64,000 nt of DNA, from positions 1,842 through 65,841 of the IMG/VR virus record IMGVR_UViG_2914081374_000001; one strand, written 5' to 3'. The DNA comes from a virus (Duplodnaviria; Caudoviricetes). The notes beneath the pieces were generated by a model. That model was not told where the DNA came from. It saw nothing but the letters and a program-made list of their open reading frames with translations, and did no database searches. Within the stretch, counting starts at the first letter, position 1. Each line of letters opens with the position of its first letter. Positions 10,714 to 48,819 of this stretch are shown here, piece by piece. The position numbers and the translations under genes are program-made.

Positions 10714-11085
10714 ATGCCTAACCTTTACATATTGAAAAACCGCAAAACGATACTGATGGACGACGAAGAAGCTTGGTATAAATGGATATCAAAAGCCACG
10801 GATTCTGGCAAGCGCATTATTGCCTGCAACAGGCTAGACGAAGATTTACTTGTTGTGACAATGTTTATAGGCATTGATGTCCAGGTGCATGAGGGCGGCT
10901 TCCCGCTGCTATTTGAAACAACCATCAATGGCGGTAACTTTGATGGATATCAAAAAAGATTCTCTACTTACGACCAAGCAGAAGCAGAACACGCCAAAAT
11001 CGTGAAGGCTCTTCTCAGGAATCTTAGATCTGTAGAGCTTTTCCCGTGCCGCTTTGAGCAACGAATTAACCAGAACATCAACTGA
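10714..11085 (+). CDS. Hypothetical phage protein
   Basis: V.T.F.GID...PLLFET.I.GG...R..TY..A...H pattern; first gene of a + strand operon. Confidence 0.7.
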   Translation: MPNLYILKNRKTILMDDEEAWYKWISKATDSGKRIIACNRLDEDLLVVTMFIGIDVQVHEGGFPLLFETTINGGNFDGYQKRFSTYDQAEAEHAKIVKALLRNLRSVELFPCRFEQRINQNIN

Positions 11086-11899
11086 CGAGGCACTTATTAA
11101 TATGTGGCTGCACGGGCGTCCGTTAACCACGACAGATGCTTATCGCCGCAGCGTCCAGCACTTTTTGATTTTTACAGGGAAAACGCTTTCTTTGACGGCA
11201 CTAGAAGACTTGCAATCCTACGCCACGCATCTACACAATTCCGGCATAAAGGAGTCTTCCATCCGCACCAAACTTAATTCGATAAAATCCCTTTTCACCT
11301 TCGCGGCGAAACTCAATTACGTCCGCTTCAACGTCGCCGCTGCACTGCGCATCCCCAAAGGTAATTCGTCCCTGGCAGGCAGGATACTCAAGCAGCAAGA
11401 AGTACTGAAACTGGTTAATTGTCCGGGTTTGAGTTTGCGCGATCGCACTCTCCTTAAGCTCATGTACGCTACCGGGATGCGGGTCAGTGAAGCGTGTCGC
11501 CTCAAGTGGAGCGACTTTCACGAGCGGGATTCAGGGGAAGTGCAAGTCACCGTGCTGGGGAAAGGGAGCAAGTTGCGCACAGTGCTAGTGCCAATTGCGG
11601 TGTGGGTGGAGTTGGTGCAGTTGCGGAGTGAGTCCGAGTTCGTTTTTGCCACAACGAACGGTACTGCTATTGATAGAATCATGGCGCATCGGATAATCAA
11701 AGATGCGGCGACTAAGGCGGGTGTGAATTCAAAGGTATCCGCCCATTGGCTAAGGCACTCACACGCCACGCACGCTTTAGCCAAGGGTGCGCCATTGGTG
11801 CTGATACGAGACAGTTTAGGACATAGCTCCATAGCTGTTTCGGATAAATATTTGCACGCAAATCCTACTGATTCAAGTAGCAATTATCTAGGAATTTGA
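11054..11899 (+). CDS. XerC/D-like tyrosine recombinase
   Basis: N-terminal SAM-like domain; TGMRVSE, GKGSK, HWLRHSH, LGHSS and catalytic Y in KYLH. Confidence 0.93.
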   Translation: MSNELTRTSTDEALINMWLHGRPLTTTDAYRRSVQHFLIFTGKTLSLTALEDLQSYATHLHNSGIKESSIRTKLNSIKSLFTFAAKLNYVRFNVAAALRIPKGNSSLAGRILKQQEVLKLVNCPGLSLRDRTLLKLMYATGMRVSEACRLKWSDFHERDSGEVQVTVLGKGSKLRTVLVPIAVWVELVQLRSESEFVFATTNGTAIDRIMAHRIIKDAATKAGVNSKVSAHWLRHSHATHALAKGAPLVLIRDSLGHSSIAVSDKYLHANPTDSSSNYLGI

Positions 11900-11933
11900 T
11901 ATTATGTTTTATTGCTGTTTTTGTGCGTAAAAC

Positions 11934-12506
11934 ATGCCTCATGTCGCCATTGTACAAATCAAGGGATTAACGCCTTATTCTCAGTCTAAGCCACACCAAA
12001 CTGAAAAATTAAATAAAGAGTCTCCTGATGACTTTGAAAAAAGAACTTGGAAAGAAAAGTTACACTATGACGAGCAAGGTATAATATTCATCCCGCCAAT
12101 GGCTTTTAAGAATTGTATTGCTGAGGCTGCCAAGTATTTGGGCAAAAAAATACCAGGAAAAAGGGGAGCTACTTACACAAAGCACTTTGAAGCAGGCGTT
12201 TTAGTTACAGATCCAAGCTTGCTTGGAATACATAAGGATTTGATAGTTGGAGATTGGATTTTTACCCCCTCCGATGGCGTCAAGGGGTCTGGCAAGCGAG
12301 TACACAAATGCTTTCCCATAATTCCACCAGGTTGGCAGGCGAAAGTGGAATTTTTGATACTTGATGATATTATTACTGAAGGTGTTTTCGTCGAACATCT
12401 AGAACAAGCCGGACAACTCATCGGTATCGGTCGGTTTAGACCCCGTAACGGTGGTTATTACGGACGGTTTGTGATAGAGAAGTTTGATTGGAAACAGATG
12501 AGTTAA
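11934..12506 (+). CDS. Stand-alone RAMP/Cas7-like protein
   Basis: Strand VQIKGLTP, IFIPPMAFKNCI (RAMP IPxxxxKG-like), C-terminal Gly-rich loop GIGRFRPRNGGYYGRF. Confidence 0.75.
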   Translation: MPHVAIVQIKGLTPYSQSKPHQTEKLNKESPDDFEKRTWKEKLHYDEQGIIFIPPMAFKNCIAEAAKYLGKKIPGKRGATYTKHFEAGVLVTDPSLLGIHKDLIVGDWIFTPSDGVKGSGKRVHKCFPIIPPGWQAKVEFLILDDIITEGVFVEHLEQAGQLIGIGRFRPRNGGYYGRFVIEKFDWKQMS

Positions 12507-12507
12507 C

Positions 12508-12635
12508 GACTTCGCTCCTGTCTGCTCCACTCAGGTCTATTCCCGTCTACTCGACTCAAGTCAACTCAAGGCAATCAATTATGAGATTTAACAGTTCTTG
12601 AGACTTCTCGTCTCCGCTCTACTCAAATCAAGGCA
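12508..12635 (+). ncRNA. Putative guide-RNA array with 5-nt periodicity ([C/G]TC-NN)n, two units
   Basis: TC recurs every 5 nt 11 times (12516-12567) and 5 times (12608-12629); both units start GACTT and end TCAAGGCA. Confidence 0.7.
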
Positions 12636-12640
12636 TTTTT

Positions 12641-13129
12641 ATGACAAAGCGTCAACCAGAAACTGAAGCTTTAATATCTTACCTCAAAACTTGTGCTGAT
12701 TCCAAAGCAGTTGCCAATTACGAGGCAATATCAAATGCCGTCGGTTTTGACGTTCTCAAGAACAGGTCGCGCTTGTCAAGAGCGATAGAGGCGTTACAAA
12801 AAGACTACGGCTACGTGGCAACTTGCTTACCTCAAGTCGGATACCAATTTCTAAAGGATGGAGCAGTCATTGATACTGTTGCCAAGCAGTTTGAGTCAAA
12901 AATTAGGAACCAAGTTGAGCGAACAGAATCTCAACTACAAGCTATCGACTGGAATCATCTTAATCCAACTGAAGTCAAAAACGCGATCGCCTGTTCAATT
13001 CGAGTGCAGGCACACCGTCAACTCACTTCACCTTTGTTCAAGCTTGCATCATTCGAGGTGGCTTCTCGAAATGACAAATTTCTGGATTCAGCCAAGGCAG
13101 CGGCGGAGCTAATGAAGGCAATCGGTTAA
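12641..13129 (+). CDS. Winged-helix-like accessory protein
   Basis: YEAISNAVG...LSRAIEALQKDYG...VGYQ wHTH-like pattern; begins right after the array. Confidence 0.6.
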   Translation: MTKRQPETEALISYLKTCADSKAVANYEAISNAVGFDVLKNRSRLSRAIEALQKDYGYVATCLPQVGYQFLKDGAVIDTVAKQFESKIRNQVERTESQLQAIDWNHLNPTEVKNAIACSIRVQAHRQLTSPLFKLASFEVASRNDKFLDSAKAAAELMKAIG

Positions 13130-14151
13130 CTAGGCGTCGTGGGTTCATAATGAATGCATCCTTCACAAGGACCACATGGGTTAATTGCGCATCTGATGTA
13201 TGGCGATCGCGCATTGTACTGGCAACTGGTGTCGCCTATCGCTTTTATCCCCTCGTCGCCGTATCCGCTAAAGTCAAACCCGGCAAAATGAGGCACGCGC
13301 CACATCTCCTCCAACACGGGATACTCTATTCTCTCGCTTCTTCGTAGTGTCCTGGTATTCCTGATCGGAGGTAATGGGCGAGTTGTGGCAACTTCAAGGA
13401 AGTGCCGAAGCATTTGTTCGTCTACCCCTAATGCACGAGCGCCTTGTGTAACTGCTGATTCTTCGGGATGCTCAACTCTTGACGACTGCGGCGCAAAGCT
13501 CGTCCAGATCTTTAGTATTCGCCTACTTGTGTTGACATCTATTTGTATCCGTTCACCGAGAGGAGAGAAAACAAAACGATAAGCACCATCACTTCGTGGT
13601 TGAATATCCAGGATTGCGGCTTGCAAGTGTATCCCGTCGAGTTCTATTGCGCTTCCAAGCTGATTTGATATGCGACACATTGGCGGCAACATTGTTTCAA
13701 TTGTTACTCTATGACCGCCTCCCGCAAAAGTAAATAAGGTTACTTCGCTGACTGGAATTTCTACAGAAAGATCACCTTCTGTGATAGTCAAGAATTTCTG
13801 AGAGGGCGATTCGACGATTTCCCAGTATTGACAGCTATTGTTACCGTGATACTCCAAGAATCGAGAGACGACGTGGTTGGCGGCGCTTGAGTAACCCAAA
13901 TTCAAAAGCATTTTCTCGTCGATGGCGTAATGGAACGCCATTGCTCTGCCGTGTATTCGCCAACAGAAGTGCAGACGCCAGCGGTGATCCATGTAATAAG
14001 CATCGACATCGATTCGTGATTCGATACGCTTTGCGATCGCCTCAATAACCGGGAGGATATTAGAAACACAAACCATATGATGCGCTGTCCGGATTCGTAC
14101 TGCCCAGTTTCGAACCACTATCGTTTCAACCAGATCCATTGCGCTCCACAC
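13126..14151 (-). CDS. Hypothetical protein with C-terminal DUF6464-like Cys-rich domain
   Basis: IGDTSCQYNARSPYIRCAINPCGPCEGC. Confidence 0.7.
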   Translation of the reverse strand: MWSAMDLVETIVVRNWAVRIRTAHHMVCVSNILPVIEAIAKRIESRIDVDAYYMDHRWRLHFCWRIHGRAMAFHYAIDEKMLLNLGYSSAANHVVSRFLEYHGNNSCQYWEIVESPSQKFLTITEGDLSVEIPVSEVTLFTFAGGGHRVTIETMLPPMCRISNQLGSAIELDGIHLQAAILDIQPRSDGAYRFVFSPLGERIQIDVNTSRRILKIWTSFAPQSSRVEHPEESAVTQGARALGVDEQMLRHFLEVATTRPLPPIRNTRTLRRSERIEYPVLEEMWRVPHFAGFDFSGYGDEGIKAIGDTSCQYNARSPYIRCAINPCGPCEGCIHYEPTTPS

Positions 14152-14278
14152 CTCTTAAACCTAGTTGAATTATACCTTATCCAAAATTTCGGACAAATCA
14201 GACAAAAAGCCAGAAGCTTTGTATATAGGGAATTCTGGCTTTACCTCCCGCTTGAGATTCGTACTTAATTTCTAAATA

Positions 14279-14764
14279 ATGTCCAGGAGCAAAGACACAG
14301 ACAAAATAAAGCTCGCCGAAGCCAAATTCATCACAGGTGAATCACCAGAAGACATTGCCGTGCAACTTGGTGTCACTCGGCGCACCATCGATAGATGGGC
14401 AATGGATGGCAACTGGCGCAACTTGCGAGAAGCGAATTCGCAGACTAACGTTGTTCCCATCACATCACGGCAACCAAAACCCAAAACCCAGCATCCATTG
14501 CCTGCTTTTCACTCTATTCGCCATGCAAAAATAGACGACTTGGAGATTATCGAATCAGCACTCTCTCAGTTGCACGCATCGCTACCAGAAGCTGAAGACA
14601 AATCCAAAGGCGCTCTTGCGGGCGCGATCGCACGTCTTGTAGAACTTCGTCGCAAGCTACAGCCCGAAACCGTGCGCGAATTGGCGGAACGAGCAATTGA
14701 GTTAGGCGTTGGTCCCGATGAGTTTCTCCAGGAGTTAAGGAATGCGTGGGCAAGAAGAGCATAA
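14279..14764 (+). CDS. terS: Terminase small subunit (HTH)
   Basis: IAVQLGVTRRTIDRW HTH; overlaps terL. Confidence 0.75.
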   Translation: MSRSKDTDKIKLAEAKFITGESPEDIAVQLGVTRRTIDRWAMDGNWRNLREANSQTNVVPITSRQPKPKTQHPLPAFHSIRHAKIDDLEIIESALSQLHASLPEAEDKSKGALAGAIARLVELRRKLQPETVRELAERAIELGVGPDEFLQELRNAWARRA

Positions 14765-16279: not shown

Positions 16280-16969
16280 ATGGTTAAAAGTATAGAAAAA
16301 GCTGGGAATGCAGTCTTAGATCCTATTAAAAAGAGGAATGATTTGGCACAAAGAAACGCAAAGCTCGTGCATAAAGTTGTGCATCAAATGAAAAACTCTT
16401 GTCGTGAGTCTCATGAGGATTTGTACCAAATTGGATTTATAGGACTTCTGAAAGCCGCTAATAGATACAATCCCAAAACAGGCAATGCTTTCAGTTCCTT
16501 CGCTATCCCATATATTCGCGGGGAAATTCAACATTATTTACGAGATCAATGGCAAAGCGTAAAAATCCCCAGATCGGCTTTAGAGCTGAGAGCCAAAGTC
16601 AAGAGAATTAAGAAGTCTCTTGACTCTTTGGGGCGAAATATTGATGAATTGCAAATTGCACTAGGACTAGGGATGGAGGAAAGCCAATGGCGGCTTTTGG
16701 ATAATATTAATAGCAACGTAACAACTAGTCTGGATGAACTAGTTTACGAGTTAAAAGCAGAAGAAGTAGAAAAAGCACCAGAAATAGAAGAACATTTAGA
16801 TAAGCTTCCTTTTCAACAAAAAAATGCTATTTTAGAGAGATTTTTAATTGGATTGAGCATTGAAGAAATTGCCAACCGTAACGGCGTAAGTACGCAGTTA
16901 ATTAGAGCGCGTATAAACATAGGGCTAAGTAAAATTCGCAGAGAAATTAAGTCAAACTATTATGAATAA
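16280..16969 (+). CDS. Sigma-70 family sigma factor, SigF/SigB-like
   Basis: EDLYQIGFIGLLKAANRYNP..G..FSSFAIPYIRGEIQHYLRD and region-4 HTH. Confidence 0.9.
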   Translation: MVKSIEKAGNAVLDPIKKRNDLAQRNAKLVHKVVHQMKNSCRESHEDLYQIGFIGLLKAANRYNPKTGNAFSSFAIPYIRGEIQHYLRDQWQSVKIPRSALELRAKVKRIKKSLDSLGRNIDELQIALGLGMEESQWRLLDNINSNVTTSLDELVYELKAEEVEKAPEIEEHLDKLPFQQKNAILERFLIGLSIEEIANRNGVSTQLIRARINIGLSKIRREIKSNYYE

Positions 16970-20874: not shown

Positions 20875-23800
20875 ATGACATCAGTAGGCTCGGTATCAAT
20901 TGAACTCAAACTAGATCGCTCCGGCTTTGACAAGGAATTTAGGGCGCTCTCTAGTGAGAAGTTCGAGCCTATACCCATCAAACTGGAACTCGATACCAAA
21001 GACTTCGAGAAGCAAATCAAGGGCTTGCAGGGCTTTTTAGAGCCATTAGTTGTTCCCATTGAATTCGATACCAAAGGTCTAGCCAAGCAATTCAAGCAAC
21101 TCAAATTTGACTGTATTCCCATCTGTGTCTGCCCGGATTTAGAATGCTTTGAACGCGAATTAAAAAATCTTGATGTAGAGGTTGAACTTAAGGTTAAATT
21201 CGATTCTCAGCAAGTAAGAAGCGCGGTTGCATCTGTCGCCGAGGAAATTAAAACGCAAATCAACACCACTGTTGAAATTAAGCAAAGTGGTGGTGGTAAC
21301 AGCGATTCAGCAGGAATTGAAAGCGCCTTCGCTAAAAGCTTAGATAACCTTTTCGAGAAACAGCAAAGTGCCAATCGTGGCGACCAGGCGAGTAAGAATT
21401 TCGTTGACTTCACTTTATCCCCCATCAAAGCAGTCAATTCTGCTTTGCAATCGGTTGTTACGGGTGCGTTCGAGAATATTGGGCGAAGCATTACAGGCTC
21501 GTTATCTAAATCGCTATCAGAAGGACTAGACAACCAGATCGGGCAAACCCTCTCTGACTTCGGCAAAGAGACGGGGAAGCTGCTGGGAGTATCGGGGAAG
21601 GAACTAGGGATTAAAGGTGGGGCAAACCAGCAAAAAAATCAACAGCAAAGCGTAGCCCCGAACGCCAATAGCGGTCTTGAGGACTTAAAGCAAAACTTTA
21701 AAACTATTAGCACAACAGCTAAAAACGTTTCGGATGTTTTGCAAACCTTTGGTGTCAACATTGGTGGTGCAGTTAATGCATTCAACAAGGCAGGCAACGC
21801 CGCGCTATCTCTAGCAGGCACTTTCTCGAAGCTGCAAGGCAGTGCGAGTGGCAGCACGGGGACAAATCCAGGAAAACCGAACGCCACAACCCAAGGCTTT
21901 CTCACTGGTGAGATTGCAGATTTAACCCCTCTGCAAGCCAAGGCACAAACCGAGCTTGCCACCAGAAAACTTAGCGCCCAACTCGCTCAACTCAAGCAGC
22001 TACCAAAGACTGAAGAGACGCGATCGCGCATCGCTGCACTTGTACGAGAGATTGCTGACATTGAGAAGAGAATGGTGATCGACATCGCCAATTCCGATCT
22101 TCCTACGGCGATTCATAGAAGCTTGGGGCAACTGAAAGCGGCTAACAGCGCTCTTATCAAACTGAAGAATGAAGCAGCGAGGCTGTCACTTGATGTCAAC
22201 AAATTAACAGCCGAGCCATCAGCAAACGTTAATGCTCCAGATATCAGTCTAGCTAAAAGAAGAAGGCGCCCCAAAGATACCGCGAAAAAAACCAACAGTG
22301 CGGACGATCTGGAATTGCGGCAAGCTGAGAGCAATTTCCGTAAGATATTTACTGAAATCGCCCGCATGTCCGGCGTTCAATTGCAACGCGGACAAATACC
22401 CGGATTGCGTTTTGGGCAAATGCCGAACGGCGTTGCGGGGCTTTACGATCCAAGGCAAAACAACCTCAATTTAAGCCAAGATCTACGCAAGCGATTAGCT
22501 ACTGGCACTTTATCTCGCGAAGACATAGATACCATTGCTCACGAGGCGAGACACGCTTTACAGCTAGCTTTTGGCAGAATCAAGCAGGCAGACTTAACCA
22601 AAGGCATCAAAGCAGGAGTGCCACTCACTGCAGCGAAAGCCAGCTCTAAAGCCTTGGACATCGAAGCTTCGGTGCAAGAATACCGTGAGGCTTTCAAGCA
22701 GAAATTTGGCAAATATCCGCCGCAAAAATTAGTAGCTACAATTCGCAAATTAGAGACAGATGCTTACACCTTCGCAGAGCAAGCATCTAAAGAGATCAGC
22801 GACAATTTAGCATCCATTCTTCAATCACAAACTAGGCGTAGAAGATCCAGAAGAAAGCCTTTATCGACACAATTGCCAAACGAAGATGACATCCCTTTGG
22901 CAAAAATCAGTGCGAATCAAATCAGGCAAGCCATTGTCAACAACTCTGGTGTAGCAAAAGCAATTAGCAATCCCCAGAATCGGCAAGCTGTAACCAACGC
23001 GCTACAACAAATCAAAGTTCCCAACTTCTCTGGGATAATCACTGGTGCTAAAAATGCCGTACAGCAAACTATTTCTAGCATCCAGTCTGGTTTAGCGACG
23101 GCAGTACAAAAAGCCCAGTCTGTTGCCAATCGACAGATTCAAATACCAACAGCTGGTATTCAGAATTTGCAAAGCCAGTTGTCAGCGTCGGTGCGAGGAT
23201 CTGTTTCTGCAACGGCACAACAAGTACAGAAGGCGTTAAATGTCGGTGCCAGGGCTTCAGTGCCAAAGCAAGCGCAATCATCGCAACGAGCCTCCTTAAA
23301 CCCCAATACTTCGCAGCAAGCAGCGGCTTACCAGTCCGGCGTACAAGGCAGCTTCTGGGAGCAACTTTTCAGGAAGCTGGAAGCACGATTTTATCGCTCG
23401 CAAATGATGCAGAGCATTCCTTCCAGTCAAAGGCGATCGCTTGTTTCAGAAGCTTCGGGATTCTTATTTTCCGGTGCGGCACTGGCAGCCCCAGGAGCTA
23501 CATTCGGAGCATTACTCGCACCACTCGCCCCAGCGATCGCACCCCTTGCCGTCACTTTTGGGATGTTACATAATGCGCTACAACCCCTCATCCAAACAAT
23601 AGTTGAAGCACTGCGGAAACTGGAGCCAGCACAGAAGCGGCTAGAGTTCACCGCAGGTAGCAAAGAAGGAGGCAAGAGAGAACTTGCATTCGCCACGGGT
23701 ATAAGCTCTGACCTGAATACGCCGCTGCTCGCTTCGTTGGAAGGCTATTCTAAGCTATCTGCTGCAGCCAAAGGAACGCGATTAGAAGGCGCAAAGACGC

Positions 23801-26800
23801 GGGAACTGTTTGAGGGGATTTCCACAGCTTCTAAAGCACTGCAGCTATCCCAGGAAGATTTAAATCTGGTGATGTTCGCCTTTACTCAAGTACTAAGTAA
23901 AGGTAAACTGACAGCTGAAGAAGTGCGGCTACAGATCGCAGAGCGATTACCTGGTGCGATCAACATTTTCGCTAAAAGTTTGGGTATTTCTGTACAAGAA
24001 TTCAATGCCCTCCTAGAAAGTGGCTCACTGCTTAGCGAAGATGTGTTGCCCAAGGTTGGCAGGGGTTTAAGGGAGCAGTTTGGGCAAGCAGCGAAAGACG
24101 CTAGCGGTAGCTTCTTAAGTGCAGTTACGAGAGTTGACAACGCTATTCTCAAATTGCAAAAAGGGCTAGCCGACGCCTTTGGTTCTTTGTTTGCGGGAGT
24201 CGCCAATACTTTTGGCGGACTCATTGAAATTGCGGCACAAAACATTGACAAGATAATTCAAATCGCCGGCGTCGCATTGATTGGAATCGGCGCTCAATTT
24301 TTTGTAGGATTGACAACCATTCTTAATGGTAGCGGTATAACAGCCAAGCTTACAGCAGCACTGATTCCCTTGTTCGCTAGAGCATTCGCTACCCTTACAC
24401 CATTCGTTGTCGGCATTCTCGCTGACTTTTTAGATGACGTTTTCGGTGCCAAGTTTTCGGTGATGGACAACATGATGAAGGGGACTTTCAACATCGTGTT
24501 GTCCGTCATCTTGGTGATTGATGGGTTAATCAAGAAGATATCCGAGTTGTTCTCTACTTTCTCTAGTGGAGCAGCCGAAACGCAGAAAACTACCTCAGGT
24601 ATTGGCAGTATTGTTACTGCTCTCAAGGGGGTGCTTGGTATTGTCCCTAGTACCGTTGTGGAGTTTACAGCTCTCACCTTAATGCTAATTCAAACCGCCA
24701 CTCTAGCCAAAATGGCTTTGGGACCGGTGATAGGGAATTTGGTAACGAGCATAAAGGCGTTGAGCATTGCCTTCGTTGATTCCGTAAAGAGTGGCAGAGT
24801 GTTTCAATCATCACTCAATACCTTGACAGCGGGACTTGCGAAGAGCCAGTTGGCAGTGTTTGCGATGACTGCGGCGGTGCTACTATTCTTTGCTAAAGCC
24901 GATTTTTCGGATGAATTGGGAAGCAAGTTTGATAAGTTAGGCGATCGCATGAGTGAAAGCCTTGATCGGGTGCGTGATTCTGCGAAAAGCGCGACTGACG
25001 CTATTAGTAAAATTCCGAGCAAAGTTCCAGATTTCAAGTCTAAGGGATTTGATTTATCTCTCGGCACTGGCGAGTATTTTGGATTAGAAAACGGATACAG
25101 GACAGACGACGCCATCAAGACAGCTCGCAACGCTACCAAAAATCCATTCAGTGCGGAAAGTATTATCCGATATGGACCACTATTGGGACCACTTTTATCG
25201 AAACTCGGTAACGACAAAAAAATTAGAACTCTCGCAGAAAATCAGTTTGACAATTCCTTATTAAAAGTCACCAATCAAGGTGAAAACATACAAAGGATAA
25301 TCGACCAATCCCAGTTGCTAACTGGTGGTTTTAGCTCTTCAAATGCGGGTAAAGCTTTTGCTCAAAGTCAGTCAATTGACGAGCAAATCAAGTCTCTTCA
25401 ACTACAAAGACTTGATATAGTTTCCGTTCCGGGTGCTAGTAAAGACCCAAGCAATATTAAAGCGATTCAAGACTTAGAAAAGCAAATCGAGGACTTACAA
25501 CAGCAACGCGAACAAGTCATTAAACCTATTGAATCCCTGCGTGACGAGATACTTAAAAATTCTAAAGACTTAGGTGAAGCGGTAAAAATTGTAGAAGAGG
25601 CAGATTTGCCGGAACCAGCAAAACAGGAACTCAAAGCTAGACTTGCAACTTCAATCGCTTTAATAGATCAAGCTAAGAAAAGATTAGAAGATCTTAAGGC
25701 AATTGATTTATCACCTCTGGGAAACAGTTTCACAAACATTCAGCGTCAAATTGAGAAAAGCACTATAGAATTCGACAAGGGAGTAGAAGAGCGAGAGGTA
25801 TTCAAGTCTAAAGCTATTAGTGCTATTTACGAACAGCAAGTCCAAGGCAAAATCACTCCTCGACAACTAGAAGTAAAGCTCAAAGCGATAGACACAAAAG
25901 ACTTGGAGGTTCAAAGAACAGATCTGACTAATTTGCTGCAGCAGCGCGAATTACAAATGCGTGACTTGTTAGCAGTACCATCACCAACCAAAGACCAAAT
26001 AGAAGTTATTGAAAAAACTCAAAAAGAGATCCGCGACAAGGAACTCAAACTCGCACAAGTCAGAATTCAAATAGCACAAAAAACTACTGAAGGTAAGCGG
26101 CTGGCTGAAGAGCAGACACTCAAAGAATTCACTGAAGCTAATGAAAAGGCGATGTTTGCTCTTCAAAAGAACGAAAATAGCCAGATAATTGGCATCAGAA
26201 GTCAGCAATTGTTGGGGGGGAAAAACTCAGAAGATGCAGATACTGAAATCGCTCGCGTACAAAGCACAACAGCTAAAAAAGAGCTTCAGCAAGCAGTATC
26301 GGAATTAGCGAAATTCAAAGAATTGAGGCAACAAGGGAAAGTAAATGCCGAGACATCTGCCAAACAGGAGCTAGATTTAACCAAGCAAGTTAGCAGTGCG
26401 GCACTAAAAGCAATTGAAGCTGAAATTGCGGCTCGTGAGGCTTTAAAGCAAAAACGCATCCGCGATATTGAAGAGATAGCTACCAAGGAAGAATTCGGCA
26501 TCAGCCAAAAACTTTCCGCAAGCACTAAACAGATCAAAGCACAGCAACTATCAGGTAAAATTGACGACAAAGAAGCCTCTCGTCAGTCCCTTGATGCGGA
26601 TATCAGTGCTACTCAATCCCGCATCGCTGCCAAACAACAGGAATACGATCGCATCAAAAAGCTACGGGCAGAAGGCACTCTCACCACTAAGCAATACGCC
26701 GAACGCGAGCGATCGCTGCTCACTGAAGTTGCTTCCCTTGAAGGACAGTTACTGGATCAACGTCTCTCCAAGCAGCAACAGTACCGAGAGAAGGTGCTGG

Positions 26801-28581
26801 AAGGAATCGAATTTGCTAATAAAAAAGCCGAAGCGGCGATCGCGCAATCTCAAGTTGAACGCAACATCGCTCTTAAGCAGCGCACCAGGGAAGGCGGTGA
26901 TTTGTTCGGAGAAGCGAACCAGCCAACCGTCGCCCGACTCAGCAATGAGATCGACCAAGATACCAACAGAGCAGAAGCTGAATTAATCAAAACCAAGATT
27001 CTTCAGGTAGAGGAAGAAAGAGACAAGCGAATTATCACAACGAAAGAGGCGACAGAGAAGATCCTCGCCCTTAACACAGAATTGGCACAGAAAAACCAGC
27101 AATTAATCGATCTTGAGATTGATGCTGAGGCGAAATTGCGAGACGAACGGATTGCCGCTGTTGAGCAAGTGCGGCATGTGCAGGAAGGTCGCTTCAAACT
27201 TGCGGTAAACTACCTAGAACAGGAAAAAGCCAACCTCGACCTTTACAATCAAAGTCTTGAGCGCACCGCCAAGCTAGAGGAGTCCCGCTACAATCTAAAG
27301 TTAGCGGTATCCGATGCGGGTATCTCTGGCTTGGATATCCGTAAGGGCAATGCAGATCGCGCACTGGAACTCAGTCGCAAACTCAAGGATGAAAACCTCG
27401 ACCCCAAGGTAGGGCAGGAAATCAAAAGCCAACTGAATTCCCTGGGCTTTGGTGATTCAGAGCTACAAATTCTCGAAAAGCGCAGCCAGATTGAGGACGA
27501 GATTGCAGCCAAGAAGCTGGAGGCGCTGAAAACCGAGCAAGCATACCAACGCCAATCACTGCTACTCGACTTGCAGCGACAGAAGATAGCTGCACAGACG
27601 GCTGTATTTGAAGCAGAATCGGGCAGATTGTCAGCTGCTAAAGCAAGACTGGAAGCAGATTCAGCACTGAGAATAGCCAGCATCAAAAAAGATCCGGTGG
27701 CGATTGAGATAGCAAACATCGAAGTGCAGCTTGCTAACCGTGAAGTCGAACTTAGCGATCGCAGGCTACAATCTGCCCAGGAAAACCTCAACATCCAGGA
27801 CGAGCTTACCAGGAATGCCATCATGGCACAGGAAGCAACCCAAAGGGCAGCAATAGATCAGCAATTAGCAGCTGATAGCGCCAGGAAACAATCAGCGGCA
27901 TTAGAGAAAGTGGAAGCAAGCGCCACCAAGATTTCTTCTGAATTAAAAGACAAGAACTCGAACGGTGGTGAGAGTGAAACGAAAAATCCCAGCGATTGGG
28001 TTAATCCCTTTATTCAAAAACCAGGCGAAGGCTTGTTTGAGTATCATAGCCGCATCGCCCAAGACAAAATCGAAGGAAGAATTATTGAAACCAAAAAAAC
28101 AACCAGTAGTATCGACACTACTGGCTACCATTATGATGAAGCTCTCAACAGGCAACAAGGCAATCCCCCAGCATCCGATTTTGAATTTGGAAAAATCAGA
28201 ACCTATGCCAGCCCAATTATCAAAGCAATGCCGGGTGAGAATATCTTTGAGGCGTACATGCGCCATCGGGATGATTTGGCGCTCACAAGCAACAGTAAGG
28301 CATACGAGCCACTGAATAGCAAGCCCAACGATTTATCAGAAGCATTAAAAGAATCACAAATTAAGCCGAGCGTTACGACAACTGGTTACAGTCAATTTGT
28401 CGATGCGCTCAAGGTTGCCAACTCTGGCATTGAGCAGCGGCTGGATGCACTCAATAATGCAATCCTGACTCTCGCAAATACCCCACGCAGCCTCAGTGTC
28501 AGCACGCCCAATCCCGTGGACGATGCTGCTTCAATCCTCAACGATATTTCACGGGCGCAGGTGTTGGGGGCAGGGTTATGA
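20875..28581 (+). CDS. Tape measure protein
   Basis: 2568 aa; N-terminal VGSVSIELKLD, TMP core QVLSKGKLTAEEVRLQIAERLPGA, long coiled coils. Confidence 0.92.
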   Translation: MTSVGSVSIELKLDRSGFDKEFRALSSEKFEPIPIKLELDTKDFEKQIKGLQGFLEPLVVPIEFDTKGLAKQFKQLKFDCIPICVCPDLECFERELKNLDVEVELKVKFDSQQVRSAVASVAEEIKTQINTTVEIKQSGGGNSDSAGIESAFAKSLDNLFEKQQSANRGDQASKNFVDFTLSPIKAVNSALQSVVTGAFENIGRSITGSLSKSLSEGLDNQIGQTLSDFGKETGKLLGVSGKELGIKGGANQQKNQQQSVAPNANSGLEDLKQNFKTISTTAKNVSDVLQTFGVNIGGAVNAFNKAGNAALSLAGTFSKLQGSASGSTGTNPGKPNATTQGFLTGEIADLTPLQAKAQTELATRKLSAQLAQLKQLPKTEETRSRIAALVREIADIEKRMVIDIANSDLPTAIHRSLGQLKAANSALIKLKNEAARLSLDVNKLTAEPSANVNAPDISLAKRRRRPKDTAKKTNSADDLELRQAESNFRKIFTEIARMSGVQLQRGQIPGLRFGQMPNGVAGLYDPRQNNLNLSQDLRKRLATGTLSREDIDTIAHEARHALQLAFGRIKQADLTKGIKAGVPLTAAKASSKALDIEASVQEYREAFKQKFGKYPPQKLVATIRKLETDAYTFAEQASKEISDNLASILQSQTRRRRSRRKPLSTQLPNEDDIPLAKISANQIRQAIVNNSGVAKAISNPQNRQAVTNALQQIKVPNFSGIITGAKNAVQQTISSIQSGLATAVQKAQSVANRQIQIPTAGIQNLQSQLSASVRGSVSATAQQVQKALNVGARASVPKQAQSSQRASLNPNTSQQAAAYQSGVQGSFWEQLFRKLEARFYRSQMMQSIPSSQRRSLVSEASGFLFSGAALAAPGATFGALLAPLAPAIAPLAVTFGMLHNALQPLIQTIVEALRKLEPAQKRLEFTAGSKEGGKRELAFATGISSDLNTPLLASLEGYSKLSAAAKGTRLEGAKTRELFEGISTASKALQLSQEDLNLVMFAFTQVLSKGKLTAEEVRLQIAERLPGAINIFAKSLGISVQEFNALLESGSLLSEDVLPKVGRGLREQFGQAAKDASGSFLSAVTRVDNAILKLQKGLADAFGSLFAGVANTFGGLIEIAAQNIDKIIQIAGVALIGIGAQFFVGLTTILNGSGITAKLTAALIPLFARAFATLTPFVVGILADFLDDVFGAKFSVMDNMMKGTFNIVLSVILVIDGLIKKISELFSTFSSGAAETQKTTSGIGSIVTALKGVLGIVPSTVVEFTALTLMLIQTATLAKMALGPVIGNLVTSIKALSIAFVDSVKSGRVFQSSLNTLTAGLAKSQLAVFAMTAAVLLFFAKADFSDELGSKFDKLGDRMSESLDRVRDSAKSATDAISKIPSKVPDFKSKGFDLSLGTGEYFGLENGYRTDDAIKTARNATKNPFSAESIIRYGPLLGPLLSKLGNDKKIRTLAENQFDNSLLKVTNQGENIQRIIDQSQLLTGGFSSSNAGKAFAQSQSIDEQIKSLQLQRLDIVSVPGASKDPSNIKAIQDLEKQIEDLQQQREQVIKPIESLRDEILKNSKDLGEAVKIVEEADLPEPAKQELKARLATSIALIDQAKKRLEDLKAIDLSPLGNSFTNIQRQIEKSTIEFDKGVEEREVFKSKAISAIYEQQVQGKITPRQLEVKLKAIDTKDLEVQRTDLTNLLQQRELQMRDLLAVPSPTKDQIEVIEKTQKEIRDKELKLAQVRIQIAQKTTEGKRLAEEQTLKEFTEANEKAMFALQKNENSQIIGIRSQQLLGGKNSEDADTEIARVQSTTAKKELQQAVSELAKFKELRQQGKVNAETSAKQELDLTKQVSSAALKAIEAEIAAREALKQKRIRDIEEIATKEEFGISQKLSASTKQIKAQQLSGKIDDKEASRQSLDADISATQSRIAAKQQEYDRIKKLRAEGTLTTKQYAERERSLLTEVASLEGQLLDQRLSKQQQYREKVLEGIEFANKKAEAAIAQSQVERNIALKQRTREGGDLFGEANQPTVARLSNEIDQDTNRAEAELIKTKILQVEEERDKRIITTKEATEKILALNTELAQKNQQLIDLEIDAEAKLRDERIAAVEQVRHVQEGRFKLAVNYLEQEKANLDLYNQSLERTAKLEESRYNLKLAVSDAGISGLDIRKGNADRALELSRKLKDENLDPKVGQEIKSQLNSLGFGDSELQILEKRSQIEDEIAAKKLEALKTEQAYQRQSLLLDLQRQKIAAQTAVFEAESGRLSAAKARLEADSALRIASIKKDPVAIEIANIEVQLANREVELSDRRLQSAQENLNIQDELTRNAIMAQEATQRAAIDQQLAADSARKQSAALEKVEASATKISSELKDKNSNGGESETKNPSDWVNPFIQKPGEGLFEYHSRIAQDKIEGRIIETKKTTSSIDTTGYHYDEALNRQQGNPPASDFEFGKIRTYASPIIKAMPGENIFEAYMRHRDDLALTSNSKAYEPLNSKPNDLSEALKESQIKPSVTTTGYSQFVDALKVANSGIEQRLDALNNAILTLANTPRSLSVSTPNPVDDAASILNDISRAQVLGAGL

Positions 28582-28713
28582 CCCTATGGAAAATTTTCCA
28601 TAGGGGGTGAGGTTGATTAAGATAAATCAAATTGTTTTTAAGTGCGATCGCTGCTGCCTCCCTCCGTATACTTTGCCAAAATTGAGCCAATTCTATTACA
28701 AAGAGGCATAACC

Positions 28714-29289
28714 ATGAATTGGCTTTTCATCATAATCATCGCAGTGTTCGTAGTAGCAATAGTGTTACTGCGTAAACACAAAGAACGCGATCGCCCGTTG
28801 ATTCAGCAAAAAATAACACACGATTTAACCGCCGCACTGCGGGATCTCTTAGTAGCCGGAAGATGGGCTGAAGCGGATCGAGAAACGCTTAGGATTATGC
28901 TCAAGGTAGCAAATCGACAACAAGAGGGTTGGTTAAACGTAGCGTCGATCCGAAACTTTCCCCAAAAAGATTTGCACGCTATCGATCAGCTTTGGACAAG
29001 AGCTTCTGATGGTCGATTTGGATTTAGTGTTCAAAAAGACATCTGGAATAACGTCGGGGGAAGTCTTAACGCCAACGACAAAATTTATGAAGCTTTTGGC
29101 GACAAAGTGGGATGGCGCGTTCACAAAAAGTGGCTACAGGTTGATGATTTGGACTTCGATATCTCATCTCCACCCGGTCATTTACCTGCTGTTGCTGTAA
29201 GATTAGGTGGCTTGTCTTGGGGTGTGGCTGGCTTCTGGTGGGAAAGAAGGGATGCATACGTGTTTCTTCTGTCTGAGAAGGTCTGGTGA
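28714..29289 (+). CDS. GUN4-domain membrane-anchored protein
   Basis: LRDLL.AG.W.EADRET, FP..DL..IDQLW...S.GRFGFSVQK.IW, FGD.VGW, GHLP. Confidence 0.88.
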   Translation: MNWLFIIIIAVFVVAIVLLRKHKERDRPLIQQKITHDLTAALRDLLVAGRWAEADRETLRIMLKVANRQQEGWLNVASIRNFPQKDLHAIDQLWTRASDGRFGFSVQKDIWNNVGGSLNANDKIYEAFGDKVGWRVHKKWLQVDDLDFDISSPPGHLPAVAVRLGGLSWGVAGFWWERRDAYVFLLSEKVW

Positions 29290-32542: not shown

Positions 32543-32805
32543 CATCTACCCCCTGGAAAATTTTCCATAGGGACTAAAATACCACCCACCACTGGGTGGT
32601 TTTTTAATCTAAGATTAAGCGCTTGAAGAGGGGTGCGCGAGTGTACACTGTACAGGGCGCAGAGTACCATACATTTTGACACCATGTCAACACGCGCTTT
32701 ATGCTCTTAGCAATGTGAAGATTTCGTCGCTTTTGAGGAACCGTGCTTAATATTTTGTATCCTTAATATAGAACAAGCCTGTTGACTAGTCCAAGGAGGG
32801 GTACT

Positions 32806-33405
32806 ATGCTAACTTGTTTTGACGTAGCAAATTACTTTTGCTGGCTAGCCAAAACGTTGTCTGGCTGTTTGACTCATATGCCACTACAAAAGCACGTTTA
32901 CTATGCTCAGGGCTTTTATTTAGGTCTTTACGGTGAACCTCTCTTCCTGGAAGAAATCAAGGCATGGGATTTCGGTCCCGTCATTCCAGTTTTATGGCAA
33001 GAGTACAAAGCTCACGGATCTAATCCTATTCCAGCGCCAAAAAACTTTGATGTCTCTGTTTACAGCGAACGGCAAATAGCACTACTTGATGGAGTTTATT
33101 CGAGATTTGGTCATCTAAACGCCTTTTTACTTTCGCAGATGACTCACTCCGAACCCACATGGAAAAATGCCTACCCTCAAGGTGTAATTACTACTGATGC
33201 CATGAAAGAATTCTTTGAGACATGCTTAAACTCTGACGATTCTTTGAAAAACCGCTTTTTACCATCTAGCGGTAACAGTTTAGATCGGCAACCAAACGTA
33301 GAGTCTGCTGTAGAATCTGATATTAGGAAGTCTAAAGGTTTTCAAGCTTATTTAGCTTCCAAAAAAGAGCGCTCTGAGGTTTACCGTCGTCTTGCTGAAT
33401 CCTGA
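32806..33405 (+). CDS. Panacea (DUF4065/SocA-like) antitoxin
   Basis: LQKHVYYAQG...LF.E.I.AW..GPV, LS.MTH.EPTW. Confidence 0.88.
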   Translation: MLTCFDVANYFCWLAKTLSGCLTHMPLQKHVYYAQGFYLGLYGEPLFLEEIKAWDFGPVIPVLWQEYKAHGSNPIPAPKNFDVSVYSERQIALLDGVYSRFGHLNAFLLSQMTHSEPTWKNAYPQGVITTDAMKEFFETCLNSDDSLKNRFLPSSGNSLDRQPNVESAVESDIRKSKGFQAYLASKKERSEVYRRLAES

Positions 33406-33811
33406 ATTTGTTGACATTGAATTAGCGATCGCTATTCATGACGATCTAATCGAAACGCATGGAGGTAGTTTGGGAGTAAGAGATGAGAGACTGTTAGAGT
33501 CTGCTTTATCTCAACCACAAGCTACCTTTTTTGGTGAATTTTTGCATCCCACAATTGCCGAGCAGGCCGCGGCTTATTTATATCACGTTACTAAAAACCA
33601 CGCTTTCATTGACGGCAACAAACGCGCTGCTCTTGGCATCACGGAAGCTTTTTTACGCATGAACGGATACAACTTGACTTTATCTGACAACGAATTATAC
33701 GAGTTGGTTTTAGCTGTATCTACAGGTAAGCTAGAAAAAACTGATTTAATAAGCGTGATAGCGGATCATCTTGTCGTCCAAATTTTAGGTGCTGAGGCAC
33801 AAGATTGTTAA
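33392..33811 (+). CDS. doc: Doc/Fic-family toxin
   Basis: G.RD..LLESA...P and HAFIDGNKR motif. Confidence 0.9.
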   Translation: MLNPEFVDIELAIAIHDDLIETHGGSLGVRDERLLESALSQPQATFFGEFLHPTIAEQAAAYLYHVTKNHAFIDGNKRAALGITEAFLRMNGYNLTLSDNELYELVLAVSTGKLEKTDLISVIADHLVVQILGAEAQDC

Positions 33812-47755: not shown

Positions 47756-48819
47756 TTTGCACCTCCCAACAACTCCACTGCCTTCTCAAATCTCACCCAC
47801 TGTTGCACGCCCAGGTGGGCAGCCACTTCTGCACGCAAGCAAACTCCCATCACGCCATCTTCTCGAAGCTCCGAACGTTCGACAAAGCCCTGCCTATATG
47901 CCCACGTATACCACTCACCAAAGTCAGTTGGAGCTTGAATTTTTTCAGGCTTTACACCCATCACTAAAGCCCACCTAAAATAAGCAGTCCATGATTTTTT
48001 AGGCTGAACGCCGTTCTTCATCTCTTCTCGAATAAAGGCGATCGCACCTGCTACATTCGCCCAGTTTTTGCGCAACAACCCAACTTCTAGATTGATTCGC
48101 AGTTCTCGCAATTCACGACAAACTTGGTCTATTTGTTCTTTTGTTGGCTCCAAATTTTCGGTTGTTTCGCTTGTTTCGTTTATTTTGTTTACGGCAACAG
48201 GCGCGACGGCGGGAGAATTTTCCTCATGAGGAATTGACTCTTCTAACGAGGAATCTTGGCTTATTTCCTCAACAGAGAGAGTAGGCGTGGATTGGTTTTC
48301 TTGTGCGGGTAACTCCGTGTTTTGGGCTTGCTCCCATTCTTGGGATTGCTGTGCTACGGCATCCCAATCCGGTTCTTGTTCCAAAAGTTTTTCCTCTCCA
48401 ACAGCAACCTGTTGTTGTGGAGGATCAAGATTTACTGGATCTAAGATTGGATCAATATATATAGTGGTCGTCGGTTCGTGAACGACGGTCGTCGGTTCGT
48501 GAACGACGGTCGTCGGTTCGTCATCCCACGAGCTTTGCGATTGACGCTCCGAGCCGAGGTACTGATATTGCCAAGCTCTTGCGTTTAATCGGTGATGCCG
48601 TCTGTCGATTAAACGCAACTCGTGTAGAAGTTCTAGGGCTTTGCGGATAGCGTGGCGTCCCCATTGCCCTAAAAATGTTTCTACTAACTCGTCAATTGTG
48701 ATAGTGAACCATCCTTCACGCTGGTTCCGAAAGAAATTGAGTAGCTCGGCGGCGCAGCGGGAACCTGTGAGAATTAGGTCTTTGGCGTAGCAGACAATCT
48801 TGTAAACTTTATTCGCCAT
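47752..48819 (-). CDS. Putative replication initiator (N-terminal wHTH)
   Basis: wHTH-like N-terminus followed by internal tandem repeats, as in lambda O-like genes. Confidence 0.6.
   Translation of the reverse strand: MANKVYKIVCYAKDLILTGSRCAAELLNFFRNQREGWFTITIDELVETFLGQWGRHAIRKALELLHELRLIDRRHHRLNARAWQYQYLGSERQSQSSWDDEPTTVVHEPTTVVHEPTTTIYIDPILDPVNLDPPQQQVAVGEEKLLEQEPDWDAVAQQSQEWEQAQNTELPAQENQSTPTLSVEEISQDSSLEESIPHEENSPAVAPVAVNKINETSETTENLEPTKEQIDQVCRELRELRINLEVGLLRKNWANVAGAIAFIREEMKNGVQPKKSWTAYFRWALVMGVKPEKIQAPTDFGEWYTWAYRQGFVERSELREDGVMGVCLRAEVAAHLGVQQWVRFEKAVELLGGAK
48466..48521. repeat. 21-bp tandem repeats (about 2.7 copies), candidate iterons
   Basis: GGTCGTCGGTTCGTGAACGAC x2 plus a partial copy. 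Confidence 0.85.

Follow-up and report, generated by a model that had tools for sequence, protein, structure and literature searches.

A probable VIPR locus with a (C/G)TC guide scaffold in a cyanobacterial prophage

We analysed a 64,000-nucleotide (nt) stretch of the caudoviricete record IMGVR_UViG_2914081374_000001 in IMG/VR (positions 1,842 to 65,841 of that record; hereafter the window, whose own positions are used throughout) and find that it very probably carries a Viral Interference Programmable Repeat (VIPR) system in a cyanobacterial prophage, a reading to which we give a probability of about 85%. The locus, on the plus strand between 11934 and 13129, comprises a gene for a Vipr-family RAMP protein (vipr), two tracts of 5-nt repeats with the anatomy of the guide RNAs of such systems (vrRNAs) and a gene for a predicted winged-helix partner (vap-like). 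A first-pass annotation, made from the DNA letters, had proposed here a stand-alone RAMP gene with a pentamer-periodic RNA and a winged helix-turn-helix gene as a non-CRISPR system resembling VIPR. VIPR is described in print (10.64898/2026.04.26.720920), and the proposal is supported by homology to the Vipr protein of Escherichia phage SUSP1, by the predicted fold, by the tracts and by the partner gene.

VIPR, described in 2026, is a form of RNA-guided DNA silencing in which, according to the text of the preprint, a Vipr RAMP works with vrRNAs of 9-16 YNNGG repeats that carry a 3′ tail, and DNA is recognized by a 1-nt-skip rule (10.64898/2026.04.26.720920). The same text distinguishes seven types and the accessory genes vap1-6, finds most of the systems in phages and prophages, assigns DNA-binding vap genes to types II, VI and VII, gives NNNGG, YNNNG and NNNNG as alternative repeats, and reports both that single-vrRNA systems exist and that self-targets were not found (10.64898/2026.04.26.720920). 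Further preprint texts describe the GGY triplet as sequestered between two protomers, with D177, W178 and R138 as guanine contacts in SUSP1 (10.64898/2026.04.26.720927), a functional six-unit vrRNA in SUSP1 together with solo vrRNAs (10.64898/2026.10.15.759431), and 21 clusters in which the non-canonical triplets GAC/NN, CAC/NN, WGT/NN and TGH/NN lie beside Vipr-like folds (10.64898/2026.10.21.760802).

A Vipr-family protein with a Cas7-like fold

The gene vipr (11934-12506, plus strand; stop codon TAA at 12504-12506) encodes a 190-residue protein that is a Vipr-family RAMP, an assignment we make because a profile match to SUSP1 Vipr, a confident structural model and Cas7-type structural matches coincide. 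When a profile of 31 Vipr homologues (A1, with locus L016 left out) was searched against all PDB sequences, the 'SUSP1 Vipr protein' (36pp_D) was the only match with an E value below 0.01 (5.2e-10; next match 0.048), and the sequence of the window's protein alone reaches the same chain at 0.0045. The profile alignment brings the family's glycine-rich G-loop, GIGRFRPR..YGRF, onto GVGDWRPR..FGRF of SUSP1 Vipr; in the window's protein this loop is GIGRFRPRNGGYYGRF (residues 164-179), and the motif IPPMAFK occupies residues 53-59. The family is large, with 2256 of 2306 candidate proteins reaching E ≤ 1e-3, and PHROG 4652, a group of unknown function, matches the protein at 9e-15, while Pfam holds no family for it or for the vap-like product.

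The protein is a minimal RAMP (Cas7-like) with a beta-hairpin thumb at about residues 105-130. Its AlphaFold (AF2) model has a predicted local distance difference test (pLDDT) score of 95.6 and a predicted template modelling score of 0.88, and the top Foldseek matches of that model are the Cas7 backbone subunits type VII Cas7, Csm3 and Cmr4 (E 4e-9 to 1e-6, template modelling score about 0.55-0.6), which bears out the RAMP/Cas7 fold that had been read from sequence motifs. Cas7 subunits polymerize on RNA in fixed steps. The likeness to class 1 Cas7 is nevertheless one of fold, as sequence identity is 10-15% and no CRISPR array, Cas5, Cas6, large subunit or small subunit lies nearby; the text of the VIPR preprints further sets a VIPR step of 5 nt with three buried bases against a Cas7 step of 6 nt with one flipped base. 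The PADLOC Cas models matched none of the 78 open reading frames (ORFs) of the window at E ≤ 1e-5, and no CRISPR-like direct repeats were found in 1-32000, so that the absence of cas genes and of a canonical array, also proposed at first pass, holds over these ranges. We considered a class 1 CRISPR-Cas effector and rejected it: the fold agrees, but the adjacent array and the partner cas genes are absent.

The closest experimental exemplars are the type II systems of SUSP1 and of a Pseudomonas fulva prophage (PDB 36pp), with which the window shares a minimal RAMP built on one RRM and bearing a G-loop and a thumb, a vipr-vap pair whose vap is, here by prediction, DNA-binding, guide units of 5 nt that join a constant triplet to a variable NN, a proviral location and the lack of cas genes and CRISPR array. 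The window differs from SUSP1 in that the similarity is at profile level and confined to the C-terminal half (E 5e-10), in a 4-residue insertion in the G-loop, in having 1 to 2 units, and in its scaffold, which is (C/G)TC and not GGY, with R167 and F127 in place of D177 and R138.

Two predicted guide units and a unique periodic tract

Two predicted vrRNA units follow vipr on the plus strand. Unit 1 (12510-12572) starts 3 nt past the vipr stop codon and consists of 12 pentamers (12510-12569), each a (C/G/T)T(C/T) triplet followed by two variable bases (NN), closed by a GGC cap. It parses as ctt-CG ctc-CT gtc-TG ctc-CA ctc-AG gtc-TA ttc-CC gtc-TA ctc-GA ctc-AA gtc-AA ctc-AA ggc, giving the NN string CG CT TG CA AG TA CC TA GA AA AA AA and a tally of six CTC, four GTC, one CTT and one TTC, which departs from the canonical GGY scaffold of the YNNGG repeat. 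Unit 2 (12607-12634) has five pentamers at 12607-12631 and again a GGC cap (ctc-GT ctc-CG ctc-TA ctc-AA atc-AA ggc; NN = GT CG TA AA AA), or six if gac-TT at 12602-12606 is included; it could be a short guide or what is left of a worn one. With 12 + 5 units, the locus has the features by which a vrRNA is recognized: at least four tandem 5-nt units with a constant triplet and hypervariable NN, beside vipr. These coordinates and parses agree to the base with those of the first-pass annotation.

The periodicity of unit 1 is exceptional on every scale we compared it with. TC recurs every 5 nt, eleven times, across 12516-12567 and occupies 11 of 12 phased positions, whereas the other 15 dinucleotides reach a period-5 maximum of 7/12 anywhere in the 64-kb window; a chance origin is excluded. 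A general period-5 detector, calling tracts of 8 pentamers with at least two columns in which 7/8 bases are identical, returned a single tract in the window (12503-12578) and 245 tracts in the host genome of 9,507,908 bases (2.58 per 100 kb). TC at 8/10 or more phased positions occurs at two further places only in that genome, C29:157590 and C86:269308, both of which lie inside pentapeptide-repeat-like ORFs and were rejected as guides. The tract at 12510-12572 is thus the sole one of such strength outside coding sequence in the 9.5-Mb genome.

The predicted fold of 12500-12660 is no better than that of shuffled sequences (z 0.42), without a stable structure, as expected for a single strand coated by protein. 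No pseudoknot tail is predicted, a difference from the SUSP1 clade, in which a pseudoknot forms an invariant 3′ tail; both window units end in TCAAGGCA (12566-12573 and 12628-12635). GACTT precedes each unit (12508-12512 and 12602-12606), in differing 5-nt registers. The 34-nt plus-strand spacer between the units (12573-12606) contains ATGAGATTTAAC...GACTT, which resembles ATGAGTTAACGACTT ahead of unit 1, and is possibly a leader or processing signal.

Each unit is thus preceded by a similar leader, ATGAGTTAAC-GACTT at 12495-12512 and ATGAGATTTAAC...GACTT at 12580-12606, neither with an Rfam match; the second holds a 6-codon mini-ORF (ATG AGA TTT AAC AGT TCT TGA). More widely, Rfam gave no match on 11000-14500 at E ≤ 10, hammerhead ribozymes included.

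Periodic tracts beside homologues and the probable strand of the guide

Homologous loci place the array in family context. We collected 141 loci (11 from species-representative genomes, 49 from IMG/VR, 80 from metagenomes and the window; duplicates kept), took as NN the most variable adjacent pair of columns and read the triplet on the strand of the gene; among the loci so labelled, 117 have proteins that differ from one another. A period-5 tract lies within 1500 nt of the gene in 136 of the 141, window included, and up to 1.5 kb from the gene such tracts occur at 146.5 per 100 kb compared to 3.0 further out in the same loci, an enrichment of roughly 50-fold over background. That homologues should have such tracts beside them was a test posed by the first-pass annotation, and it came out positive.

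The triplet varies widely within this one protein family. The 136 loci are labelled GGC (65), GAC (29), CGC (14), GTC (9), AGT (5), CTC (4), GTT (3), ATT (3), CGA (2), CAA (1) and GAT (1), and the GAC group, second commonest here (29/136), matches a triplet named in the text of the report on non-canonical VIPR-like arrays, which likewise have fixed non-GGY triplets (10.64898/2026.10.21.760802). GGC corresponds to the published GGY sense and its complement, GCC, is never a label, so the arrays are co-oriented with vipr and the window's RNA would be the plus strand, (C/G)TC-NN; unit 1 has the strand and position of the arrays in homologous loci. Agreeing with this, terminator hairpins and T-runs follow the units on the strand of the gene in four loci (L002, L130, L004 and L015), and a TGnTATAGT box stands ahead of the units of L130.

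The tracts also end alike. Whatever the scaffold triplet, the commonest pair of closing NN is ('AA','AA'), in 52 of 197 called runs, at least 113 of these runs have AA as the last NN but one, and a GG(C/T) cap is frequent after the tract end (...CAAGGTT, ...TCAAGGCA). Endings of AA-xyz-AA followed by AAGG recur across the family, on the strand of the gene in all types, which suggests a common 3′ terminal signal.

These observations bear on the alternative of a minus-strand RNA, whose repeat NN-GA(G/C) would be nearer to the G-rich published consensus. Every unit would then bear a G, as GAG or GAC, and look superficially closer to GGY. But GGC stands on the gene's strand in all 65 loci of that label, with no GCC locus to mirror them, the terminators of the four loci named above follow the units on the gene's strand, and the AAGG endings lie on the plus strand in all types; we regard a minus-strand guide as the least probable of the readings considered here, close to negligible.

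One homologue comes from an isolate. Phage DSL-LC04 (OR003939.1), a cultured lake phage, encodes a Vipr homologue (29.9% identity, E 5e-8) that is annotated as a 'helix-turn-helix transcriptional regulator' and has GGT/GGC-NN pentamer arrays directly upstream, ending in AAGGTT and a terminator hairpin. Homologue and canonical arrays together make this (L153:1990-2315 and 2312-2929) an unannotated VIPR locus in an isolate.

A conserved partner gene

The gene at 12641-13129 (plus strand) encodes a 162-residue product with a predicted N-terminal winged helix followed by long helices, and fits a conserved winged-helix partner of the vap kind, in line with the DNA-binding vap genes of VIPR types II, VI and VII. 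In the product, helices are placed at residues 6-21, 27-34 and 42-56 and strands at 60-63 and 67-70; the AF2 model (pLDDT 82.4) has three helices and a beta hairpin, with long helices after them, a winged-helix topology in keeping with the winged helix-turn-helix gene first proposed. Foldseek matches to this model are weak (E 0.02-0.2), and among the matches listed winged-helix DNA binders dominate (Sso10a-2, ScpB, SaeR, MarR family, linker histone). Two of 13 aligned homologues touch the MGMT DNA-binding domain in Pfam, and a vap profile searched against PDB sequences gave only matches with E > 0.4, to the MGMT DNA-binding region. By tblastn (E < 1e-3), vap homologues stand beside vipr in 14 of the 140 other loci, including all three of the other CTC loci.

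Unit 2 stops 6 nt short of vap, its AAGG lying 8 nt ahead of the start codon, and one transcript may carry the units together with vipr and vap. This arrangement raises the alternative that the tract has a role in cis, on the messenger of vipr and vap, instead of or besides serving as a guide in trans, with coating by Vipr tuning the translation of vap. The spacing on both sides, 3 nt after vipr and 6 nt before vap, would suit such a role, as would the lack of an independent promoter or terminator and the fact that the other CTC loci have vap straight after vipr and their arrays elsewhere. The idea is drawn from position, however, and in this family an array often follows vipr at once (280 downstream tracts) with no vap behind it, so that we hold cis action to be very improbable, if slightly less so than a minus-strand RNA.

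The CTC clade and its scaffold triplet

A tree built from 111 labelled proteins, none identical to another, joins the window's Vipr to those of L064, L002 and L130 (support 0.81), and the sister loci are of CGA and CGC type. L002 is a Microcoleus sp. metagenome-assembled genome (JBOFTL010000308.1), and L064 and L130 are metagenome contigs. The three relatives share 56-61% protein identity with the window, a CTC/NN scaffold and a homologous vap directly downstream of vipr. Over 154 units from the four loci of this clade, the first triplet position is C in 75% (0.79 bits), the second T in 98% (1.84 bits) and the third C in 99% (1.94 bits), whereas NN is near-random, at 0.13 and 0.07 bits for its two positions. 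The constant triplet and variable NN first noticed in the window therefore hold for the clade, whose repeats have the constant-scaffold, variable-guide anatomy of a vrRNA.

Whereas VIPR and non-canonical triplets are already published, this purine-free, loosely C/G-first TC scaffold of a small cyanobacterial clade is apparently undescribed. The (C/G)TC scaffold was not found in the text of the VIPR preprints or in a literature search, the figures and supplements that list logos lying outside that coverage, and the main text of the report on non-canonical arrays is without CTC or STC and has GTC only in an unrelated 8-nt repeat (10.64898/2026.10.21.760802). The non-GGY repeats and triplets in print imply that GGY defines the canonical subtype and not the VIPR family. 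The earlier suggestion of a distinct variant stands as far as the triplet differs, and is qualified by the range of triplets within one protein family and by those already published.

The protein offers a possible account of how the triplet changes. In a hidden Markov model alignment, D177, W178 and R138 of SUSP1 align with R167, F168 and F127 in the Vipr of the window, and two columns, 107 and 167, follow the second triplet position (window codons: residue 107, 12252-12254; 127, 12312-12314; 167, 12432-12434). E107 and R167, a pair that goes with G at the second triplet position, occur together in 47/49 GGC, 12/12 CGC and 7/9 GTC proteins, compared to 2/25 GAC and 0/4 CTC proteins, where the counts are inflated by kinship and the two GAC exceptions have weak arrays. 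GAC loci carry L, M, F, N or Q at 107 and F, S, Y and others at 167. Parsimony requires at least 12 separate origins of GAC on the tree and at least 14 losses or regains of the E/R pair, so that the association between residues and triplet recurs independently. At position 127, Y is confined to C-first triplets: 10 of the 19 proteins of that group carry it, compared to none of the 92 others.

The window itself has D107, F127 and R167, the same residues as the GTC loci L065 and L067, which fits its mixture of CTC and GTC units; its three closest relatives have D or N at 107 and S or T at 167. Altered pocket residues most likely read the unusual triplet, as judged from these alignments, although we treat the covariation as a lead and not as proof. 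More generally, we tentatively propose, at somewhat less than even odds, that the VIPR scaffold triplet is not fixed and has been respecified repeatedly by a few pocket residues of Vipr, the window's clade using a purine-free NTC, an orthogonal grammar that might be predicted from protein sequence. If so, orthogonal scaffolds could prevent the guides of one VIPR phage from being hijacked by another that is co-resident. The 141 loci, with 11 triplet types and recurrent covariation, would amount to a testable specificity code, one that would help in building VIPR tools that are orthogonal and in explaining how rival phages keep their guides from being stolen. A natural guide scaffold without guanine also means that the published guanine contacts cannot fully explain how Vipr reads its repeat.

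Proposed mechanism and points against it

By analogy with SUSP1 and P. fulva, the locus would be transcribed on the plus strand and Vipr protomers would polymerize on the unstructured tract, one per pentamer, with neighbouring pairs of protomers burying the constant (C/G)TC triplet and displaying the two variable bases. The 12 dinucleotides displayed by unit 1 could then pair with double-stranded DNA in the pattern NNxNNx..., one base being skipped per unit, and this pairing would silence a rival phage, or another mobile element, at the level of transcription, with the winged-helix Vap assisting.

Several observations weigh against this reading. The 1-nt-skip rule is carried over to the CTC clade by analogy, and the guanine-specific contacts in print cannot hold unchanged for a scaffold that lacks guanine; residue 167 of the window is R, as in GGC-type proteins, unlike the S or T of its CTC relatives. 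The array is meagre, with one full unit and a five-unit stub, where the three other CTC loci have 1 to 6 units of 8-19 pentamers: there are 3 in L002, 6 in L130 and, in L064, one 12-unit run that is cut by the contig end. A scan for consensus promoters and terminators found none flanking the window's units (3 promoter-like sites compared to 2.3 expected), whereas the units of L002 and L130 have their own terminator hairpins and those of L130 also an extended -10 box. Furthermore, the arrays of the CTC relatives flank the vipr-vap pair, whereas those of the window lie between the two genes.

Gapped-pattern searches for targets of the NN string, proposed with the first-pass annotation, returned nothing above chance, although they are low in power, with one guide and one genome per species. 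In the window's own genome, the unit 1 string reaches at best 20/24 at skip 1, compared to 20 at skip 0 and 21 at skip 2, and the 24/24 obtained at skip 3 is the locus itself. With up to three mismatches in 24 allowed, none of 401 genomes from the order and none of 151 from the family gave a match, and there were no exact matches in IMG/VR viral contigs for pentamers 1-9 or 3-12 of unit 1. Eleven exact IMG/VR matches to pentamers 1-8 extend to 16-19/24 only, which is chance level, and were set aside.

The same observations make it conceivable that this is a decaying VIPR locus, in which the protein genes are intact, the array has eroded to an orphan unit and a stub without promoter or terminator, and silencing is lost. 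Its 12 + 5 pentamers contrast with the several units of 13-19 pentamers in L002 and L130, the first and seventh triplets of unit 1 are CTT and TTC, and both the consensus scan beside the units and the target searches came out empty. Decay sits poorly, though, with the 22 of 22 family-invariant residues that vipr retains, with the open frame of vap and with T and C that are both perfect through 11 consecutive pentamers. Single-vrRNA systems and a functional six-unit vrRNA are also reported in the preprint texts (10.64898/2026.04.26.720920, 10.64898/2026.10.15.759431), and co-transcription with vipr and vap would make a separate promoter unnecessary. Decay is unlikely in our view, yet it is the strongest competitor to a working VIPR system.

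Prophage and host setting

The window is a prophage and thus has the viral or proviral location typical of VIPR. Its phage genes include an integrase (11054-11899), a portal (DUF4055), a large terminase, a GP7-like capsid and a Gp80 fibre, along with a sigma-70 family factor directly after the terminase (16280-16966, plus strand) and a tape-measure-like ORF of 2568 residues (20875-28578, plus strand). The octamer GCGATCGC, which we take to be the cyanobacterial HIP1 signature, occurs 5646 times in the host genome compared to 145 expected, and the guanine-cytosine content is 41%, both consistent with a cyanobacterial host. The host genome has one copy of vipr, and a search of 150 further genomes sampled from the host family brought up none at E ≤ 1e-10. 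As a VIPR system, the locus would extend VIPR to prophages of large cyanobacterial genomes of the filamentous type.

Several other features of the window deserve mention. Convergent with vap is a 341-residue ORF (13126-14151, minus strand) whose last 40 residues resemble the Cys-rich DUF6464 (E 1.8e-19), the remainder being without a family. SocA/Panacea antitoxin-like and Fic/Doc genes adjoin at 32782-33808 (plus strand) and are likely a toxin-antitoxin pair of the prophage. The strongest Tandem Repeats Finder match in the window is a perfect 21-nt tandem repeat of 2.7 copies at 48466-48521 (GGTCGTCGGTTCGTGAACGAC). Finally, a GUN4-like domain protein is encoded at 28642-29286 (plus strand; Pfam E 2e-40), and PADLOC gives it a second match, to the C-terminal part of its model PD-T4-6 (E 1e-39); a porphyrin-binding-type domain is unusual within a cyanobacterial prophage.

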